A DNA stretch of 64,000 bases from an uncultured Lachnospiraceae bacterium (lineage in GTDB: Bacteria; Bacillota; Clostridia; Lachnospirales; Lachnospiraceae). The notes beneath the pieces were generated by a model that saw only the letters and a program-made list of their open reading frames with translations, did no database searches and was not told the DNA's origin. Made by a program: the position numbers and the translations under genes. The stretch is taken from NCBI GenBank assembly GCA_900320485.1, contig ONSO01000002.1, forward strand, positions 1,187-65,186. The letters are read 5' to 3'. Below, piece by piece: positions 197 to 15,872 of the stretch. Each line of letters opens with the position of its first letter. The first letter of the stretch is position 1.

Positions 197-1177
197 TTAC
201 AATATTTTTCGAAGCCATGCCTTTACCTCAGGACTTGTAAAAGCGGCCTCCACTGCATTGGAAACAAGCGTCCTCTTTTCTTCCCGCGTCAGGTGAAGCA
301 ATTCCTCCACGTAGCGGAATTCCTCTGCCAGCGTGGTTCCTTCAATGCCCATGTCATCCGTATTGACCGTGACCAAAATTCCCTGTCTTAGATATTCCCG
401 CAAAGGATACTTTGTCATGTCCTCCACGGCATGGGTCTGGCGGTTACTGGTAGGGCAAGTCTCCAAAAAAATGCCCCGCTTCCTCACAAGCTCCACTACT
501 TCAGGGTCCTCACCCATGCGGATTCCATGTCCTATGCGGCGGGCGCCATACGTGACGGCAAGCCTTACGCTTTCCGGGCCGTCTGCCTCTCCTGCATGAA
601 TGGTAAAGGGAATTCCTGCCTCTCTCGCTTTTTCGAAAAGCTTCTCATAGTTTTTCGTGGGAAACAGTGCCTCTGCTCCCGCAAGGTCGATGGCAACCAC
701 TCCGCCATCCTCCACAAGATACTTCCTTGCAAGGTGCAGGGTTTCTTCGTTTTGCGCTTCATTTCCCTGTCCCCGCATGCAACAGAGGATCAAATTCACC
801 TTCAGCTTTGTCCGCTTCATGCCTTCCAGCGCCGCCTTTACGGCATCTTCCTGCGTCATGCCCTTTGTACAGTGTAGCTGCGGGGCAAAGCGTATCTCCG
901 CATAAACAACGCCCTGTGAAAGAATGGTATCCCCCACAAGGCGCACGGCTTCGCTAAGCCCTTCCGGCGTTTGCATTAATGACAACGGAAGTTCAAAGCA
1001 TTTTAAGAAATCATTAAGGCTCCGGCAATCCTCCGGAACGGTGAGAAGTCTTAAGAGCTCCCCTTCATCCTCCGGCAGTTCCATTTTCTGAATCTGCGCC
1101 AACCGCCTGGCGATCTTTGGCGTCAAGGCACCATCCAAATGTAAGTGCAGATCTACGTAACGCTCCCCTTGCTCCAT
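197..1177 (-). CDS. add: Adenosine deaminase
   Basis: DLHLHLDG, YAEIRFAP, HAGE, RIGHG, CPTSN and NTDD motifs. Confidence 0.93.
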   Translation of the reverse strand: MEQGERYVDLHLHLDGALTPKIARRLAQIQKMELPEDEGELLRLLTVPEDCRSLNDFLKCFELPLSLMQTPEGLSEAVRLVGDTILSQGVVYAEIRFAPQLHCTKGMTQEDAVKAALEGMKRTKLKVNLILCCMRGQGNEAQNEETLHLARKYLVEDGGVVAIDLAGAEALFPTKNYEKLFEKAREAGIPFTIHAGEADGPESVRLAVTYGARRIGHGIRMGEDPEVVELVRKRGIFLETCPTSNRQTHAVEDMTKYPLREYLRQGILVTVNTDDMGIEGTTLAEEFRYVEELLHLTREEKRTLVSNAVEAAFTSPEVKAWLRKIL

Positions 1178-1356: not shown

Positions 1357-2145
1357 TTAGATGACGTAATCCGGCGCTTCGAGAAGGCTCATTTTTCGAA
1401 GGAATTCCTTTGTCCTTTCCTGTCTTGGATTTTGAAAAACTTCCTTGGGCGTTCCGTCCTCAACGATCTTGCCGCCGTCCAGAAAAATGCACCTGTTTGC
1501 CACCTTGCGGATAAAGGCCATCTCGTGAGATACAAGGATCATGGTGTGACCTTCTTCCGCAAGTCGCCGGATGGTTTCCAATACTTCGCCCACCAGCTCC
1601 GGGTCAAGGGAGGAGGTCGGTTCATCCATGAGGATCAGGTCCGGCTTCATGGCAAGCACTCTGGCAATGGCCACTCTCTGCTGCTGCCCGCCGGAGAGAT
1701 GTACGGGATAATGATTGGCCCATTTCTCCATGCCGACTCTGGTAAGTTCCCGGAGAGCGATCTTTCTTGCCTCCTCCTTGCTCTTTTTTTGAACGGTGAC
1801 AAGTCCCTCCATCACGTTCTCAAGAGCAGTCTTTTTTTGAAACAGGTTAAATCGCTGAAATACCATGCCGGTTCGCTGTCTTAGTTCAATAATATTTTTC
1901 TTGTTGGATTTTCTGCCATTGGAAAGGTCAATGGTCTTTCCCTCCAGTTCAATAGAGCCGCTCTCAGGGACCTCCAGCTGATTGATGCAGCGGAGCAGCG
2001 TGGATTTTCCCGTTCCGGAAGGACCAATGACGCCAAGTACGTCCCCTTCACGGATGGTCAGGTCAATGCCGTCTAAAACCACGTTGTCATGAAATTTTTT
2101 ATGCAGGTTTTTAACCGCAAATTGTTTTTTCTCAGCCACCGTCAT
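1357..2145 (-). CDS. Polar amino-acid ABC transporter ATP-binding protein (TcyC/TcyN-like)
   Basis: GPSGTGKS, MVFQRFNLF, LSGGQQQRVAIAR, DEPTSSLDPE. Confidence 0.92.
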   Translation of the reverse strand: MTVAEKKQFAVKNLHKKFHDNVVLDGIDLTIREGDVLGVIGPSGTGKSTLLRCINQLEVPESGSIELEGKTIDLSNGRKSNKKNIIELRQRTGMVFQRFNLFQKKTALENVMEGLVTVQKKSKEEARKIALRELTRVGMEKWANHYPVHLSGGQQQRVAIARVLAMKPDLILMDEPTSSLDPELVGEVLETIRRLAEEGHTMILVSHEMAFIRKVANRCIFLDGGKIVEDGTPKEVFQNPRQERTKEFLRKMSLLEAPDYVI

Positions 2146-2963
2146 GCCTCCCCGGTCAATCGCTCACGCTTTCCAACGACCTTTTTTTGCTTCTCCGGCT
2201 TTTGCCCGTCTGCCTTCCGCGCCCCTTTGCCCTGCTGCTCTGTTTCCAGCTGTGCGGGCTGTTCCGGAATGGCAATTTTCTTTTCGATCAGTTTCAGTAC
2301 GTTCTCAAATAAAATGGTGATGGCCCAATAGATCAGTGCCAAAGAAACGTAAACCTCAAAGTATCTGTAATTTCTGCCTGAGAGGATCTTTCCCTCTGCC
2401 GTCATCTCCACCACCGCACAGGTGAATGCCAGTGAAGTTCCCTTAATGGCATTGATGAAAGAATTCCCAAGGGAGGGAAGTGCCACCGTAAGAGCCTCCG
2501 GGATAATGATCCGGCGAAGGGCCTGCCCGCCCGTCATGCCAAGGGCTGCCGCAGCTTCGTGCTGCCCCTTGTCTACGGATAAGAGGGCCGCGCGAAATAC
2601 CTCTGCGTCAAAAGCCGATTGGTTAAATCCAAGTGCCAGAACCGCATATGCGAATCCCGGAATGGCCGCCACCTTCAGATCACTCCCCGTCTGCTGGTTA
2701 ATATACTTCAAAAGCATGGGAACGCCAAAGTAGGCAATGTATAACTGTACCAGCACGGGCGTACCGCGTACCAGGGATACGTAAAAGGTGGCCAGCTTAT
2801 CCAGCACCTTTACGTGCTTAATCTTAATGACGGCGATCAATAGTCCGAGCAACATGCCAAACAGCGTGGAGGCGATCGCCAGTTCCATGGTGACCGGCAG
2901 ATATTTCAAAAGATCCGGGATCTGCGTAAAAACCAACTTAAAATCAAATATTTTACCGCTCAT
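2142..2963 (-). CDS. Polar amino-acid ABC transporter permease (cystine/glutathione type)
   Basis: RGTPVLVQL, AEVFRAA..SVDKGQHEAA.ALGM (EAA loop). Confidence 0.92.
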   Translation of the reverse strand: MSGKIFDFKLVFTQIPDLLKYLPVTMELAIASTLFGMLLGLLIAVIKIKHVKVLDKLATFYVSLVRGTPVLVQLYIAYFGVPMLLKYINQQTGSDLKVAAIPGFAYAVLALGFNQSAFDAEVFRAALLSVDKGQHEAAAALGMTGGQALRRIIIPEALTVALPSLGNSFINAIKGTSLAFTCAVVEMTAEGKILSGRNYRYFEVYVSLALIYWAITILFENVLKLIEKKIAIPEQPAQLETEQQGKGARKADGQKPEKQKKVVGKRERLTGEA

Positions 2964-2976
2964 GCCTTAATCCAAC

Positions 2977-3882
2977 CTAATTGATCTTACTTTCAAAATC
3001 TTCTGCCGCGGGCGTCGTGGCATATCCGAAATACTGCAGTGAAAGCTTCTCCAACGTTCCATCCTCATAGAGCTGCTTGATGGCTACGTCAATGTCGTCC
3101 CTAAGCTTTTTGCCCTTTTCATCCTTTGCGTAGAGATAATAGGTATTCACCGTGGGAAGAATGTCTGCCAGTGCCTCGGCGTCCAAGGTCACCTTCTTAA
3201 TTCCCTGGAATTGATATTCATCAAAATATGCGGAGATCATGGGGCCGTCATCCAAGGTGAAATCTGCGGCGCCGTCAGCAACCTGCTGATATCTCACTAC
3301 TACGGTCGCATCGGAATAGATTAGCTTGATCTGCTCATCCGGATGCTCCTCATTCCACTGCTCCAGCGCCGCAGTATCACCGCCGGAGGCTCCAACGATC
3401 ACGGAATAGCCTCTGGCCGCAGCATCATGCAGATCCTTTAAGGGTTCATCTCCCTCTCTTTGTACAAAGGCCTTATCCGTCACTTTATAGGGATAGGAGA
3501 AATAATAGGATTCTCCCCTCTGCTCGCGCCATACCCAGTTACCTACGGTTACGTCATAGAGTCCGGACAGAACGCCCGTAAGGCCGTCCGTTGCGGAAAT
3601 ATATTCCGCCTCATATTGGGGAAGGCGATCAATGGCCTCCTTAAACACCGCGTAGTCAAATCCATCCGACGTTCCGTCATCCTTTACGTAAAGATAAGGG
3701 GCGGGACCTTGGCTTACGTGTACCTTGATGGTAGTCACCTGAGCTGAACTTGCATCCCCTCCCTGGGAATTGCCTGCGGCGCTGGCCTTTGCACCGTCCT
3801 TTGCGCCGCATCCGCTCAGCGCTCCCGTAAGAAGCGCCAAGCCTAAAGTAACGGCAAACAGTTTTGTCAATTTATTTTTCAT
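2977..3882 (-). CDS. Amino-acid ABC transporter substrate-binding lipoprotein (SBP family 3)
   Basis: Lipobox LSGC; PY...DG..DGFD; DGTLEKLS..YFG C-terminus; operon context. Confidence 0.88.
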   Translation of the reverse strand: MKNKLTKLFAVTLGLALLTGALSGCGAKDGAKASAAGNSQGGDASSAQVTTIKVHVSQGPAPYLYVKDDGTSDGFDYAVFKEAIDRLPQYEAEYISATDGLTGVLSGLYDVTVGNWVWREQRGESYYFSYPYKVTDKAFVQREGDEPLKDLHDAAARGYSVIVGASGGDTAALEQWNEEHPDEQIKLIYSDATVVVRYQQVADGAADFTLDDGPMISAYFDEYQFQGIKKVTLDAEALADILPTVNTYYLYAKDEKGKKLRDDIDVAIKQLYEDGTLEKLSLQYFGYATTPAAEDFESKIN

Positions 3883-3905: not shown

Positions 3906-5138
3906 TTAGTTATTCTTCAAAAGTCCCTTTAAGGGATTTACGGTTACGTCAAAGTCCGGTCTGTAATTGGTCGGCTCTCTGTCCTCCCAGGAAGGAGAGT
4001 TCCAAATGGTCTTAGAGATCTCGGACTGATAATCCTCAGGGGTCTCGCCTTCTGGATGCTTTAAGAACAGGTTTTCAGGATCTGCGGAAAGCTTTGCTCT
4101 CTCGTGATCCGTCGCCCAAAGCTCCTCAAACGGGATCAGGGGCACGATTCTTTCCTCATAGCCCTTGAAGAATCCCTTTCCTCCGCCGATGCCTCTTCCC
4201 TCCCTAAAGAAGGTGTACTTCGCAAACTGAGGAATGGAATAAAGCTCTCTTACGTATCCCCAAATGTTCTTGTACTCGGTGATCCTCTTCTTCATGGGCC
4301 CAATGGACCTAAAGTATCCGGTCTCCCATCTCACCAGGGAAACGTATGCCCGGATGTCGGAATCCGTTACGTAATCGCCAAAGATAAAGCGGTTGGTCTC
4401 CAGTCTCTTATCCAGTTTCTCCAATGAATCGAAGAAATCTTCATAACCCTCATTATAAGCTTCCCATGACACGCCAAATGCCATGCGGTAATGTCCGTTG
4501 TTGATATGAGGGAAGAGCCAGTCATTAAACTCGTCGATTTCCTTTCTGTACTTTTTGGGGTACAGATCCGGCGCATCCACGGGCTGGAACTTTCTGAACT
4601 GTACCTCAATGTAGTTGGAAAGGCGGTGATAGTCGTTGTTTACGGCCTTCTTTTCCTTAACGTCTACAAAGGTCGGCGTGGTGGCGCGTCCCTTATACTC
4701 AGGATTAGCATTCTTGTAAAATTCAGAGAGGAAGTGCACGCCCGTGATGGGATCCTTGAAATCCTTCTGATCAGCAAAACCGTGACCGTACTTGTTGGTC
4801 TCGCCGGAATGGCTCGTGGTCTGATCTGCGATCACGTCCTGCAGTCCCAGAAGATCTCTTGCAATGACGGGGCGGTTAGACCAGTTGCATCCGTGCGCCC
4901 AGTAGATGGCAAACCTGTTTGCCTCCGCCTTGTGTTCTCCTTCCTTATCGCCAAAGGGAACAATGAAGGAATTGGGCTGGCGTACAAATACGCCCCTCTC
5001 GTTTGTTTCATCCTTCTGCTCGTTGGGCCTTGGTGCCAGGCCGCCTGCCTCCTGCGCAAACTTCTCTGCCAACTCATCCGTGTAATCCGTCTTAACGTTC
5101 TCTCTTTTCGTATAATCAAAAGTGCAACTTGCTGCCAT
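3906..5138 (-). CDS. Glutathionyl-hydroquinone reductase / omega-class GST (YqjG-like)
   Basis: G.FVRQ, GCNWS (equivalent of CPWA), Y.GRAT.P, LYP, INNG.Y, RFIFGD.VT.SDIR. Start reassigned to ATG 5138 after RBS AAGGAG. Confidence 0.85.
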   Translation of the reverse strand: MAASCTFDYTKRENVKTDYTDELAEKFAQEAGGLAPRPNEQKDETNERGVFVRQPNSFIVPFGDKEGEHKAEANRFAIYWAHGCNWSNRPVIARDLLGLQDVIADQTTSHSGETNKYGHGFADQKDFKDPITGVHFLSEFYKNANPEYKGRATTPTFVDVKEKKAVNNDYHRLSNYIEVQFRKFQPVDAPDLYPKKYRKEIDEFNDWLFPHINNGHYRMAFGVSWEAYNEGYEDFFDSLEKLDKRLETNRFIFGDYVTDSDIRAYVSLVRWETGYFRSIGPMKKRITEYKNIWGYVRELYSIPQFAKYTFFREGRGIGGGKGFFKGYEERIVPLIPFEELWATDHERAKLSADPENLFLKHPEGETPEDYQSEISKTIWNSPSWEDREPTNYRPDFDVTVNPLKGLLKNN

Positions 5139-5200: not shown

Positions 5201-5236
5201 AAAAAAATAACAGCCTCACTCCCCATGAAACTGCCA
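5201..5236 (-). terminator. Intrinsic terminator (attenuator) in the leader of the GST-ABC operon
   Basis: mRNA TGGCAGTTTCA-loop-TGAGGCTGTTA (11 bp with G-U pairs) followed by T7. Confidence 0.65.
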
Positions 5237-5278
5237 CGTTTACGCATCATAAATCATGAATCCAGTTCATTGGAATCC

Positions 5279-5365
5279 TTACGAGATCCTATACATTTTC
5301 ATCCCTCGCATACAAAGACAACAACATGCCAGCTCCATTCCCATCATAGTATTCTTTCTCATCAT
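5279..5365 (-). CDS. Cys/Met-rich leader peptide, 28 aa (MMRKNTMMGMELACCCLCMRGMKMYRIS)
   Basis: Hand translation; RBS GAAAGGAG just upstream; 4 Cys and 8 Met; lies between a promoter and a terminator. Confidence 0.8.
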   Translation of the reverse strand: MMRKNTMMGMELACCCLCMRGMKMYRIS

Positions 5366-5423
5366 CTTTGCTCCTTTCTTCTGAATGAAAATTTCGAAGT
5401 CGTTTGTTTGCTTCGTTGTTGTT

Positions 5424-5452
5424 ATCATAATACGATTTCGCAGAGTTGTAAA
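5424..5452 (-). promoter_or_regulatory. Sigma-A type promoter
   Basis: TTTACA-17 bp-TATGAT on the minus strand. Confidence 0.65.
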
Positions 5453-5491
5453 TTACGGGGCATTTATCGTTCGTGATAAATGCCGTTTATC
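5452..5491. promoter_or_regulatory. Putative LysR (CmbR-type) binding sites
   Basis: TGATA-N9-TATC at 5474-5491, plus a weaker GATA-N9-TAAT (minus strand) abutting the -35; adjacent to the LysR gene. Confidence 0.55.
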
Positions 5492-5520
5492 GCCGTAAAA
5501 GGGAAGGAGGCGCGCCTTTG

Positions 5521-6426
5521 CTACGCCTCCTTGTATTTCAGCAGCTCTTCCACGTAGGCCTTTCCATACTTTGACAACTCGCCGCCTTTTCTTGTAAGGT
5601 AACCGATCACCAAAGGATCCTCTTCCCTTAATTTCACTGACACCATGCCCTTTAACACGGCATCCTCTTCCGACAACATGCCGGAACCGACGGAATATCC
5701 GCCAAGTCTGGCAATCAGCTCCATGGTGGTCGCCCGGTCATCCGACTTGATCAGCTTAGGGAAATCATAGTCTGCCATGGCTTCCTCTTTGAGGTAAAAA
5801 TGTCCCTCTTCTCCCTGGTCAAAGGACACGCAAGGGTAGCCTCCAAGCTCTTCCAGTGAGATTTCCTTTCTGTCAGCAAATTTATGTCCCTTCCAGAAAT
5901 ACGCGTAGGTTTCCCTTTTCATCAGGGGCACAAATTCCAGCTGGTACTCCTTCAGGAGCTTTTTTAAGGGACCTTCATTGCTGCCGGAATAGGACACGAT
6001 CCCCACCTCACTCTTGAGATCCCTGACGTTTTCCAATACCTCGTGAGTCCTTGTCTCATGGATGGAGAACAGATACTGCTCCGGTTCAAACCGCCTGATC
6101 ACCTCCGCGAAAGACTTTATGGCAAAATTATAATGTTGGGTTGAAACGGAAAATCGTTCCTTTTCTTTTGCGCGGGACAGATAACGTTCCTCCAAAACCT
6201 CATACTGTCCCACCGCCTGCTTTGCATAGGTAATGAACTCCCTGCCTTCCTGCGTCAGGGTGATGCCCTTATTGGTTCTCTCAAAGATCAGTATCCCAAG
6301 CTCCTCCTCCAGCTCACGAATGCTGGCGGAAAGCGCCGGCTGGGATACGTAAAGCTTTGTCGCCGCCTCACGCATGGATGGGGAATGGGCCACGGTCAAC
6401 ACGTATTTTAATTGATTTACGTTCAT
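5521..6426 (-). CDS. LysR family regulator (CmbR/MtaR-like, sulfur amino-acid metabolism)
   Basis: AA.KLYVSQPALS.SIRELEEELG..IFERTNKG; FSVSTQHY.F motif; context. Confidence 0.92.
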   Translation of the reverse strand: MNVNQLKYVLTVAHSPSMREAATKLYVSQPALSASIRELEEELGILIFERTNKGITLTQEGREFITYAKQAVGQYEVLEERYLSRAKEKERFSVSTQHYNFAIKSFAEVIRRFEPEQYLFSIHETRTHEVLENVRDLKSEVGIVSYSGSNEGPLKKLLKEYQLEFVPLMKRETYAYFWKGHKFADRKEISLEELGGYPCVSFDQGEEGHFYLKEEAMADYDFPKLIKSDDRATTMELIARLGGYSVGSGMLSEEDAVLKGMVSVKLREEDPLVIGYLTRKGGELSKYGKAYVEELLKYKEA

Positions 6427-7622: not shown

Positions 7623-9323
7623 TTATTCCTCAAATGCCTGCGCCAGGTCTGCGATCAGATCCTTTGGATCCTCAAGTCCCGCGGAAAGACGCAGAACGCA
7701 GTCCGTAATGCCATTTGCGATCCTGACCTCCTCCGGTATGTCCGCGTGGGTTTGGGTCACGGGATACGTAAGCAGCGTTTCCACGCCTCCAAGACTCTCC
7801 GCAAAGGGAATCAGTTTTGTATGCTTCAAAATATGTTTTGCCAGTTCGCTGCTCTCCACCTCAAAGGTCAGCATGGCACCAAAGCCCGTAGCCTGTCTCT
7901 TACAGATCTCATGGCTTTCCGTTCCGGGAAGTCCGGGATAATAAACCTTCTTAACCCTGGGATGGCCCTGCAGGAAGTTCGCGATGGCCTTTGCATTGGC
8001 CTGTGCCTTCTCCATGCGGACGGGCAAGGTCTTGATCCCGCGAAGGATCAGCCAGCTGTCCATGGGTGCCAGTCCGGATCCCACGGTCTTGATGAGGAAC
8101 CGCATTCTCTCAGAGATTTCCTTGGAATTTGTAACCACAAAGCCTGCCAAAGTGTCATTGTGTCCTCCAAGGAATTTCGTGCCGCTGTGAATGACCACGT
8201 CCGCCCCAAGCTCCAACGGCTTTTGGAAGTAGGGGGATAAGAAGGTATTGTCTACAATGAGTAGCAGGCCGTGCTTCTTTGCAATCCGGGCAACCTTGCG
8301 TACGTCCGTTACGTTCATCATGGGGTTAGTCGGCGTTTCGATAAAGATGGCCTTTGTGTTTTCCTGAACGTAATCTTCAAGATCCACCTGACTGCAATTC
8401 ACGTGAGAAAAGGTGATGCCGTTCTTCTCGCTGACGTTGCGGAACAGCCTGATGCTTCCGCCGTAAAGGTCTGCTTCGGTGATCAGGTGATCTCCGGGTT
8501 TAAATAGCTCCATCAGTGCCGTTATTGCAGCCATGCCGGTGGAAAATGCCAGGGCGTCAATGCCGCCCTCCAGGGATGCCACAACCTTCTCCAGCTGTGC
8601 CCTGGTAGGGTTTTGCAATCTGCCGTAGTCAAAGCCAGTACTCTTCCCAACCTCAGGATGTGCATAGGTTGCAGTCTGATAAATGGGGAAGCTGATGGCG
8701 CCGGTTACGTCAGCCTTGGGTCTTTCGTGATCACCATAAATGCATTTGGTGGAAAATCCAAATTCCGCCTTCCCGGTCTCCTCCTTTGCGGACAAGGCTT
8801 CTGCCGCCGCCTCTTCCGATACCTCCAGATACTTTTCCACAAGAACGCATACAAAATCAGGCTTAAATCCGTCAGGTCGCTTGGGCCGGGGCGGACGGTT
8901 TTTCGCATGCACGTCATATTCATTGGGGGATATGTTGGGATTGTATACGTAGCCGCACTTTTCATAGAAGCCCTGGGCCCGGTCCTGGGCGGAAATGACG
9001 ACGTGAGAGATGCCCTTTTCAGCGATCCACTTTTCCGCCTCTTCGATCATGATGCGGCCGTATCCGCTCTTTTGTTTTTCCCGGATGGTGCAGACTCTCT
9101 CGATCTTTCCAATGCCGGGTCTGGGAAATGCAATGCGCAGTCCCGCCACGGGCTTATGATCCTCAATGATCAAAACGCCGTGAAAGTCTTCCTCCCCGCC
9201 ATCCCCAAGAAACTCCGTCTCCACGGGAATGTTCTGTCCAAAACAAAAGGCATCCGTCCTTACGTAGTTGTATGCATGAAACTGCCACTTGGGCGAATCC
9301 TTTGTCACTCTGTAAATCTCCAT
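7623..9323 (-). CDS. Fusion: N-terminal GNAT acetyltransferase (ElaA/YjcF-like) + cystathionine gamma-synthase/lyase (MetB/MetI family)
   Basis: aa 1-165: KIERVC..REKQKSGYG, SAQ..A.GFYEK.GY. aa ~190-566: PIYQTATY, YGRLQNPTR, IETPTNP, VDNTF, HSGTKFLGGH, ESLGGVETL. Confidence 0.88.
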   Translation of the reverse strand: MEIYRVTKDSPKWQFHAYNYVRTDAFCFGQNIPVETEFLGDGGEEDFHGVLIIEDHKPVAGLRIAFPRPGIGKIERVCTIREKQKSGYGRIMIEEAEKWIAEKGISHVVISAQDRAQGFYEKCGYVYNPNISPNEYDVHAKNRPPRPKRPDGFKPDFVCVLVEKYLEVSEEAAAEALSAKEETGKAEFGFSTKCIYGDHERPKADVTGAISFPIYQTATYAHPEVGKSTGFDYGRLQNPTRAQLEKVVASLEGGIDALAFSTGMAAITALMELFKPGDHLITEADLYGGSIRLFRNVSEKNGITFSHVNCSQVDLEDYVQENTKAIFIETPTNPMMNVTDVRKVARIAKKHGLLLIVDNTFLSPYFQKPLELGADVVIHSGTKFLGGHNDTLAGFVVTNSKEISERMRFLIKTVGSGLAPMDSWLILRGIKTLPVRMEKAQANAKAIANFLQGHPRVKKVYYPGLPGTESHEICKRQATGFGAMLTFEVESSELAKHILKHTKLIPFAESLGGVETLLTYPVTQTHADIPEEVRIANGITDCVLRLSAGLEDPKDLIADLAQAFEE

Positions 9324-15746: not shown

Positions 15747-15872
15747 CTAGCTTAGCGTTGTATCAGGACGCGCGGACATGCGTTCGAACGCCCCAGCCAC
15801 TTTGTATGCCCGGGATTTCTGCATTCGACAACACATTCCTGATTTCCATCCGTAATTCCAAGCAAGAAACAT
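15747..15872 (-). CDS. Leader peptide, 41 aa, with Met-Cys-Cys (MFLAWNYGWKSGMCCRMQKSRAYKVAGAFERMSARPDTTLS)
   Basis: Hand translation; strong RBS AAAGGAGGT; tandem TGT TGT at 15828-15833; stop ~25 nt before the terminator. Confidence 0.75.
   Translation of the reverse strand: MFLAWNYGWKSGMCCRMQKSRAYKVAGAFERMSARPDTTLS

Follow-up and report, generated by a model that had tools for sequence, protein, structure and literature searches.

In the trp operon of Escherichia coli and the his operon of Salmonella, transcription is attenuated by a leader that combines a Shine-Dalgarno (SD)-led ORF rich in cognate codons, an antiterminator whose 5' strand lies just past the stop codon, and an intrinsic terminator before the first gene. 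The trp and his leaders also form a protector helix, so an untranslated leader terminates. Available passages of 10.1101/834739 summarise these classical leader-peptide attenuators and report that poly-Cys, leaderless small ORFs (sORFs) were demonstrated to be translational attenuators in mycobacteria; polycysteine sORFs had been predicted there earlier (PMC1262725, in part). In Rhodobacterales, a passage of PMC8632094 describes the uORFC-8-2 motif before cysS, with a predicted Cys uORF and an intrinsic terminator. Within the Bacillota, excerpts of PMC2965389 and PMC4833913 predict His leader peptides for Bacillus hisS and hisZ, and excerpts of PMC6851288 and PMC9226507 state that the antibiotic-sensing tlrB and vmlR leaders of B. 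subtilis need NusG pausing, TTNTTT being named for vmlR. Cys T-box and S-box control has been described in Clostridium, including C. perfringens (PMC2940859, in part), and the Bacillota have been classed as runaway transcribers (PMC13323073, in part).

The leader described here lies in a 64,000-nucleotide stretch of DNA from an uncultured Lachnospiraceae bacterium, the whole of which is called the window. Like the trp and his attenuators, it has an SD-led ORF rich in cognate codons, an antiterminator 5' strand just past the stop and an intrinsic terminator before the first gene. Unlike them, its signal would be Cys and Met, its sensing codons lie 13 to 17 codons before the stop in most members of the family and pair with the leader's own start, no protector helix was found that would force termination of an untranslated leader, and its host belongs to the Bacillota. 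The other comparisons refer to the passages cited above. The uORFC-8-2 motif shares a Cys-codon uORF (Cys at ~14-15) held in a stem and followed by an intrinsic terminator, but it belongs to Alphaproteobacteria and cysS and has two mostly UGC codons, and the passage names neither a Met cluster nor start-site pairing; the supplement of PMC8632094 contains 0 mentions of cysteine or of clostridial names. The mycobacterial sORFs likewise place runs of Cys codons upstream of sulfur genes, but they are leaderless, act on downstream translation and have no terminator, whereas the window leader is SD-led with a terminator and an antiterminator. The Bacillus His and tlrB/vmlR leaders are also ribosome-controlled transcription attenuators of Bacillota, responding to other signals, and tlrB and vmlR depend on NusG pausing, whereas TTNTTT is absent from 16 of 17 leaders of the present family and present in one. 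Finally, the T-boxes and S-boxes of Clostridium also terminate transcription of cysteine genes prematurely according to sulfur amino acid supply, but through tRNA- or SAM-binding RNA without translation, and neither element occurs at the window leader.

The leader and the genes around it have the following features:

5521..6426, minus strand: LysR regulator gene, candidate operator binder (Pfam HTH_1 and LysR_substrate), directly upstream of the leader
5465..5493, minus strand: putative CmbR/CysR-like LysR operator, YGATA-N9-TATCA-N4-YGATA, ending 13 nt upstream of the -35 box
5424..5452, minus strand: sigma-A-type promoter TTTACA-17-TATGAT (-35 TTTACA at 5452-5447, 17-nt spacer, -10 TATGAT at 5429-5424)
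5371..5378, minus strand: Shine-Dalgarno sequence GAAAGGAG of the leader ORF, invariant in 14/14 aligned leaders
5279..5365, minus strand: leader ORF MMRKNTMMGMELACCCLCMRGMKMYRIS, 28 codons with 4 Cys and 8 Met (7 internal), from the ORF call and orthologues
5360..5371, minus strand: 5' strand of helix P1, GCAAAGATGATG, comprising the SD's final G, the spacer and the AUG; 12/12 pairing with 5323-5312
5312..5323, minus strand: 3' strand of helix P1, TGTTGTCTTTGT, the codons Cys-Cys-Leu-Cys, with compensatory changes between clades
5263..5275, minus strand: antiterminator 5' strand, +4 to +16 past the stop codon; predicted partner 5233-5220, in the upper arm and loop of the terminator
5201..5237, minus strand: intrinsic terminator (arm 5237-5225, loop 5224-5220, arm 5219-5207, U-tract to 5201)
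3906..5138, minus strand: Xi-class glutathione transferase (GST)/glutathionyl-hydroquinone reductase (YqjG) relative, the first regulated gene (PDB and Pfam)
1357..3882, minus strand: polar amino-acid ABC importer of cystine type, with binding protein, permease and ATPase (NCBIfam and PDB)

A preliminary description of this DNA had reported the promoter, the SD, the 28-codon ORF and the terminator with its T7 tract, and each was recovered at the position given; a helix that would occlude the start, P1, and the LysR box had been missed. The promoter match is on its own at chance level (1 found compared with 1.6 in shuffles), and orthologues carry TTTACA or TTTTCA at the matching -35 place. The SD lies ~40 nt past the predicted +1. 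The Cys residues are codons 14, 15, 16 and 18 (5326-5312), every one TGT, which is rarer than TGC as a Cys codon in the host genome (0.51% versus 0.98%). The second ATG of the ORF (5362, 27 aa) is, judged by orthologous leaders, the likelier start, since the first triplet is ACG in loci L009 and L017 and the position of P1 marks 5362 as the homologous start. The terminator hairpin (5237-5207) has 13 bp and -14.4 kcal/mol, with the T7 tract at 5207-5201; it stands between the leader and the first gene, which starts at 5138, and is conserved in the family, with 4 of 9 consensus pairs altered on both sides among 16 aligned leaders. In loci L001 and L002, an A-rich array of short repeats (AAAATCAAAAC-like) lies between the terminator and the GST start and stretches this spacer to 140-150 nt.

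Conservation was scored on 80 species-level GST loci, of which the 33 with at least 200 nt free upstream were treated as operon heads. A Cys leader was defined as an SD-led short ORF with at least 3 Cys in six codons. Such a leader stood before 18/33 operon heads compared with 5/662 upstream regions genome-wide, and Met clusters before 16/33 compared with 3/662, while clusters of other residues reached at most 3/33; the 33 loci are kin and not independent. By the same rule, 15/33 operon heads had no leader. Within the host genome, only 2 of the 385 SD-led short ORFs in 1402 upstream regions have at least 3 Cys in 5 codons, namely the window leader and one before metY, which is more than chance would give. 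The genome scan for an SD with a poly-Cys ORF that the preliminary description had suggested returned the window and metY leaders, and the conservation of the Cys run on which it had made its reading depend was borne out by the orthologous loci. A DNA pattern of SD plus MMCCC, blind to frame and to the next gene, gave 10 matches in 9 of 401 genomes of the family and 0 with the reversed control. Nine of the ten have an in-frame start just behind the SD, and the next genes were as follows: MetQ-type in two cases, metY in one, an amino-acid binding protein in two (one named by NCBIfam, one by eye), an amidohydrolase in one, GST-like genes in two (named by eye and locus overlap) and no called gene in one. 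A sequence-only model of the leader, run on 151 relatives and 151 same-genus genomes, returned three strong matches beside the window, at loci L002, L011 and L036; none of these is new, since two had served to train the model and L002 is almost identical to a sequence that had. Three of the 37 other loci, the best-scoring weak matches, were inspected and are also Cys leaders; by eye they precede a cystathionine lyase, an amino-acid permease and a small ORF.

The orthologous leaders combine differing peptides with the same SD, Cys and Met clusters and terminator. The peptides vary widely (…MMMCCCCCMM…, …MMMCCCLCM…, …MLMCCCMCMM…, …MMCCRMCC…), whereas the SD, the AUG and a CAG core in the terminator arm are invariant. 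Judged by this conservation, the window element is a real, conserved cis-regulatory element. Six close GST orthologues (L012-L014, L015, L016, L018) have a promoter that runs directly into the gene, with no leader. At L025, ~180 nt upstream of GST, there is an apparently decayed leader in which an SD, Cys-Arg-Cys codons and a CAGTTC hairpin are visible by eye and no short ORF was found.

Folding was performed on 17 distinct leaders of the window family (the window and 16 others); near-identical or duplicate leaders (L002, L050, L111, L118, L119, L123, L128) were not among the 17, and L025 was left out for want of a short ORF. The stretch past the stop codon paired with the terminator arm at z<=-1.5 in 10/17 leaders compared with 13% of 63 ordinary terminators whose spacing was similar; taken alone, the duplex of the window was not significant (z -1.1, p 0.15). 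Folds of the nascent RNA showed a shared geometry in which nucleotides +2 to +14 past the stop bind the terminator loop and those that follow bind the upper arm, and the two sides co-vary (TTCC/GGGA in the window, CTTTTT/GAAAAG in L017, TTTC/GGAA in L114). This loop-lock helix was present in 14/17 leaders, compared with 7/63 ordinary terminators and 4-23% of spacer shuffles, by a criterion set post hoc on inspection of the leader folds and with the 17 leaders representing few clades. The energy gap between antiterminator and terminator had a median of 2.3 kcal/mol in leaders versus 12.6 in controls, and cognate spacer/arm pairs were better than swapped pairs (p 0.009). The segment 5270-5263, whose pairing with the terminator arm had been ranked weakest in the preliminary description, proved to be the core of the conserved antiterminator. 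The antiterminator is absent from L126, and RNAalifold on the post-stop region recovered the terminator only, because the spacers align poorly.

With a ribosome placed at the first Cys codon, the mean loop-lock probability was 0.54, falling to 0.11 at the stop codon. This drop was found in 15/17 leaders with a 12-nt footprint, 11/17 with 9 nt and 15/17 with 15 nt; at 15 nt the window's lock re-forms in another register (0.44). In these predictions the lock held wherever the ribosome stood short of the last codon, so both Met and Cys codons can act as delay sites. Full-length equilibrium folding with a moving ribosome gave a clear switch for L004, L008 and L069. The window leader showed none, with a terminator probability of 0.94 at the first Cys, 0.92 at the stop and 0.96 without a ribosome, and an equilibrium switch model was rejected for it; with the terminator ahead in each of these states, only a kinetic switch would fit. 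A protector (1:2) helix or anti-antiterminator was sought in the leaders and not found, the no-ribosome nascent folds keeping the antiterminator (mean lock 0.51), so that an untranslated leader would likely read through. Such read-through would suit Met sensing, since a shortage of Met also slows initiation and a Met-sensing leader would need to read through without translation. Rho was not found in the host genome, which is 86% complete, and 55 of its 279 crudely called terminators start within 12 nt of a stop codon. A short distance from stop to terminator, the stop-to-stem criterion, reportedly served Johnson et al. in 2020 as a signature of runaway transcription.

Helix P1 joins a 12-nt strand, which runs from the SD's final G to the end of the AUG, to four Cys-run codons, and all 12 positions are paired in 9/17 leaders. 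In the window, this pairing was equalled or bettered by 7 of 1000 shuffles (-13.1 kcal/mol, z -3.0), and across the 12/12 leaders 1-12 of 1000 shuffles did as well. Two further leaders have 11/12 and 10/12 pairs and six have at most 9/12; by the 12-nt test P1 is absent from these six (L007, L010, L011, L019, L126, L171) and from distant leaders, and L126 has an 8-bp variant in which a Pro codon, CCC, lies opposite GGG in the spacer. Between the CCLC and CCCC clades there are compensatory changes at helix positions 5 and 7 (A-U to U-G or C-G, and A-U to G-C at a synonymous Cys third position), and this pairing with changes on both sides explains the Leu within CCCLC. Cognate P1 pairs beat swapped ones (p 0.0003), a result that draws on few clades. 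P1 may serve as a gate on ribosome loading, a pause hairpin, or both.

Several other readings of these data were weighed. One takes up the first pairing listed in the preliminary description, that of codons 10-14 (5338-5324) with the 5' arm of the terminator, as the antiterminator; it would act while the ribosome remained within the opening codons of the ORF. This duplex is indeed the strongest in the window sequence (-15.8 kcal/mol, z -4.3), and placing the A site at codons 3-6 lowers the equilibrium probability of the terminator to 0.1-0.2. However, it reaches z<=-2 in only 2/16 orthologues (L114 and L126), it would be hidden by a Cys-stalled ribosome, which is the wrong logic, and without a ribosome it competes with P1 (terminator probability 0.96), so we consider this switch highly improbable. 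What stood of the earlier proposal is the Cys/Met leader with its terminator, the Met cluster being conserved along with the Cys run; the codon 10-14 pairing as the switch did not. It is also very unlikely that the element works as RNA only, bound by a protein or metabolite, with the Cys codons a by-product of the G/U-rich strand that P1 needs. P1 does covary, and pairing accounts for the one non-Cys codon in the run (Leu, CTT), but in-frame Cys runs persist without P1 in the 6/17 leaders with at most 9/12 pairs, in the 9 in-frame SD+MMCCC matches and in distant Cys leaders, so the runs are not merely a by-product; in addition, the SD and AUG are invariant, and Rfam at gathering score gave 0 matches in the window, T-box and SAM riboswitch included.

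A trans-acting peptide, perhaps one that binds metals or thiols, with a hairpin that merely ends its transcript, is in our view scarcely probable. Metal-binding peptides are rich in Cys and Met, as this one is, but the Cys spacing varies freely (CCCLC, CCCCC, CCCMC, CCRMCC, CCPC, CMCMC) and the flanks diverge, the leader always precedes sulfur genes and carries a competing helix, and an unrelated leader can stand in for it. The leader peptide has no match in Pfam or NCBIfam, and exact look-up of leader peptides in a protein collection found 0/3. Little credence can be given, likewise, to a general sensor of translation speed or to a terminator of fixed, partial strength, the LysR box then being responsible for the sulfur response; selection is specific to Cys and Met clusters, even if the predicted lock holds wherever the ribosome stands short of the last codon and two relatives (L015, L016) keep the LysR box and promoter with no leader.

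The leader that can stand in for the window type belongs to a second family, which has a member elsewhere in the window:

15747..15872, minus strand: 15.8 kb leader, carrying a CC pair, with a terminator near 15731-15706

As the preliminary description held, this leader is unlike the one before GST (local alignment z 0.3). It is homologous (z 26) to the metY leader (G000:C176, L209). In both, TCCCGGGCA lies a few codons past the Cys cluster and is complementary to the terminator arm, and equilibrium folding of the metY leader switches between the two Cys codons of its CC pair. The family, with a CCCGGGAG terminator, leads GST in L008, L069, L113, L115, L166 and L189 and also heads operons in L026-L028, L038 and L078. 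On comparison of these loci, an unrelated 15.8 kb-type leader takes the place of the window-type leader at the GST gene of other genomes. A direct repeat of ~80 nt, in two near-identical copies, occupies 15678-15512 on the minus strand, downstream of the 15.8 kb terminator and ahead of the peptidase start.

The window leader lies in a sulfur cluster that comprises a peptidase, an ABC importer, two cysK-type genes, a GNAT-cystathionine lyase fusion, a PatB C-S lyase and the LysR gene, followed by the leader, GST and the cystine-type ABC importer. The GST product matched 3m1g (E 2.5e-48), YqjG 3r3e and GST Xi in the PDB and GST_C_2 in Pfam, and its nearest relatives come from rumen Lachnospiraceae. 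The top NCBIfam matches of the ABC permease and ATPase are a cystine permease and TcyN, under the curated cut-offs; those of the binding protein in the PDB are 4eq9 and 4c0r, which we take to be the glutathione binder GshT, and YtmK. The genes downstream fit the supply of the sensed amino acid, GST Xi and the cystine-type importer here and metQ, metY and cysK for related leaders. Other genes and relatives seen here include a fusion of an N-terminal GNAT acetyltransferase with a cystathionine gamma-synthase/lyase domain (7623-9323, minus strand), an adenosine deaminase gene right after the ABC importer and possibly co-transcribed with it (197-1177, minus strand), and tandem paralogues of the Xi-class GST in Lachnospiraceae, up to four per genome (L094, L096, L098-L100, L103, L106-L109). 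The host genome also holds 8 T-boxes, one of them before cysE (G000:C206:18344-18615, L191), so T-box and leader-peptide control of cysteine genes would coexist in it, as far as sequence can tell.

A second layer of control is suggested by the LysR box, which, searched with a relaxed pattern, recurs at this spacing from the -35 box in 22/32 orthologous upstream regions, including the two leaderless relatives that keep the promoter (L015, L016), and, with the strict pattern, occurs only once in the host genome. Compared by eye with the S. pneumoniae CmbR consensus in a passage of PMC5131005, it agrees at 17/21 positions. LysR orthologues, 70-81% identical, lie just upstream of GST in most leader-bearing loci, and annotation of the adjacent protein returned generic LysR names only. 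We infer that the box is a probable site of this adjacent protein, which likely controls the promoter.

We are fairly confident that the element is a ribosome-operated transcription attenuator that induces the GST-ABC operon in response to a shortage of charged Cys-tRNA and probably of Met-tRNA; what is observed is the conserved SD, leader ORF, Cys and Met clusters, terminator and complementarities. In the nascent RNA, positions +4 to +16 past the stop would pair with the upper 5' arm and loop of the terminator and block its nucleation. When sulfur amino acids are plentiful, a ribosome would reach the stop codon in time and cover +1 to +10, freeing the loop so that the terminator zips; a ribosome held back anywhere before that, at a Cys or a Met codon, would not disturb the lock, and RNA polymerase would continue past the terminator. 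We predict a kinetic switch, as the terminator wins at equilibrium, and P1 may limit or time ribosome loading. Modelled in this manner, the system works like a classical leader-peptide attenuator but would best be classed as a variant and not a member, because the protector helix is missing.

A more elaborate and rather speculative version, which we hold as possible but doubtful, is a kinetic sulfur sensor with two stages, suited to a bacterium in which RNA polymerase runs ahead of the ribosomes, combining closure of the start by P1, a no-ribosome state that is ON, and one loop-locking antiterminator. P1 would shut over the start codon once the Cys codons are transcribed, excluding a ribosome that initiates late when fMet-tRNA is low, and might double as a pause hairpin unwound by the initiating ribosome. 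With no protector helix, absence of a ribosome would mean ON; Met shortage would be read at initiation and at the Met codons and Cys shortage at the Cys run, and only a ribosome at the stop codon would release the loop-locking antiterminator.

In the literature covered, which did not extend to subscription journals or bioRxiv supplements, no Cys/Met leader attenuator was found in Lachnospiraceae or Clostridia, and no case of sensing codons pairing with the leader's own start was found outside closed journals. A prior prediction may exist, for example in Russian comparative-genomics surveys in subscription journals. The clostridial sulfur genes of the literature covered are under T-boxes, S-boxes and LysR, and amino-acid leader peptides of Bacillota are reported for histidine only. 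Cys/Met leader attenuators seem to have at least two designs in Lachnospiraceae, unrelated and interchangeable, and the host genome has a T-box as well. A covarying helix between the sensing codons and their own start, P1, is a specific and mutable candidate for a timing device, and the system would offer a direct test of ribosome-coupled attenuation in a phylum classed as transcriptionally 'runaway'. The leaders may also flag unannotated sulfur-scavenging genes, here an operon of GST Xi and cystine/glutathione-type import.
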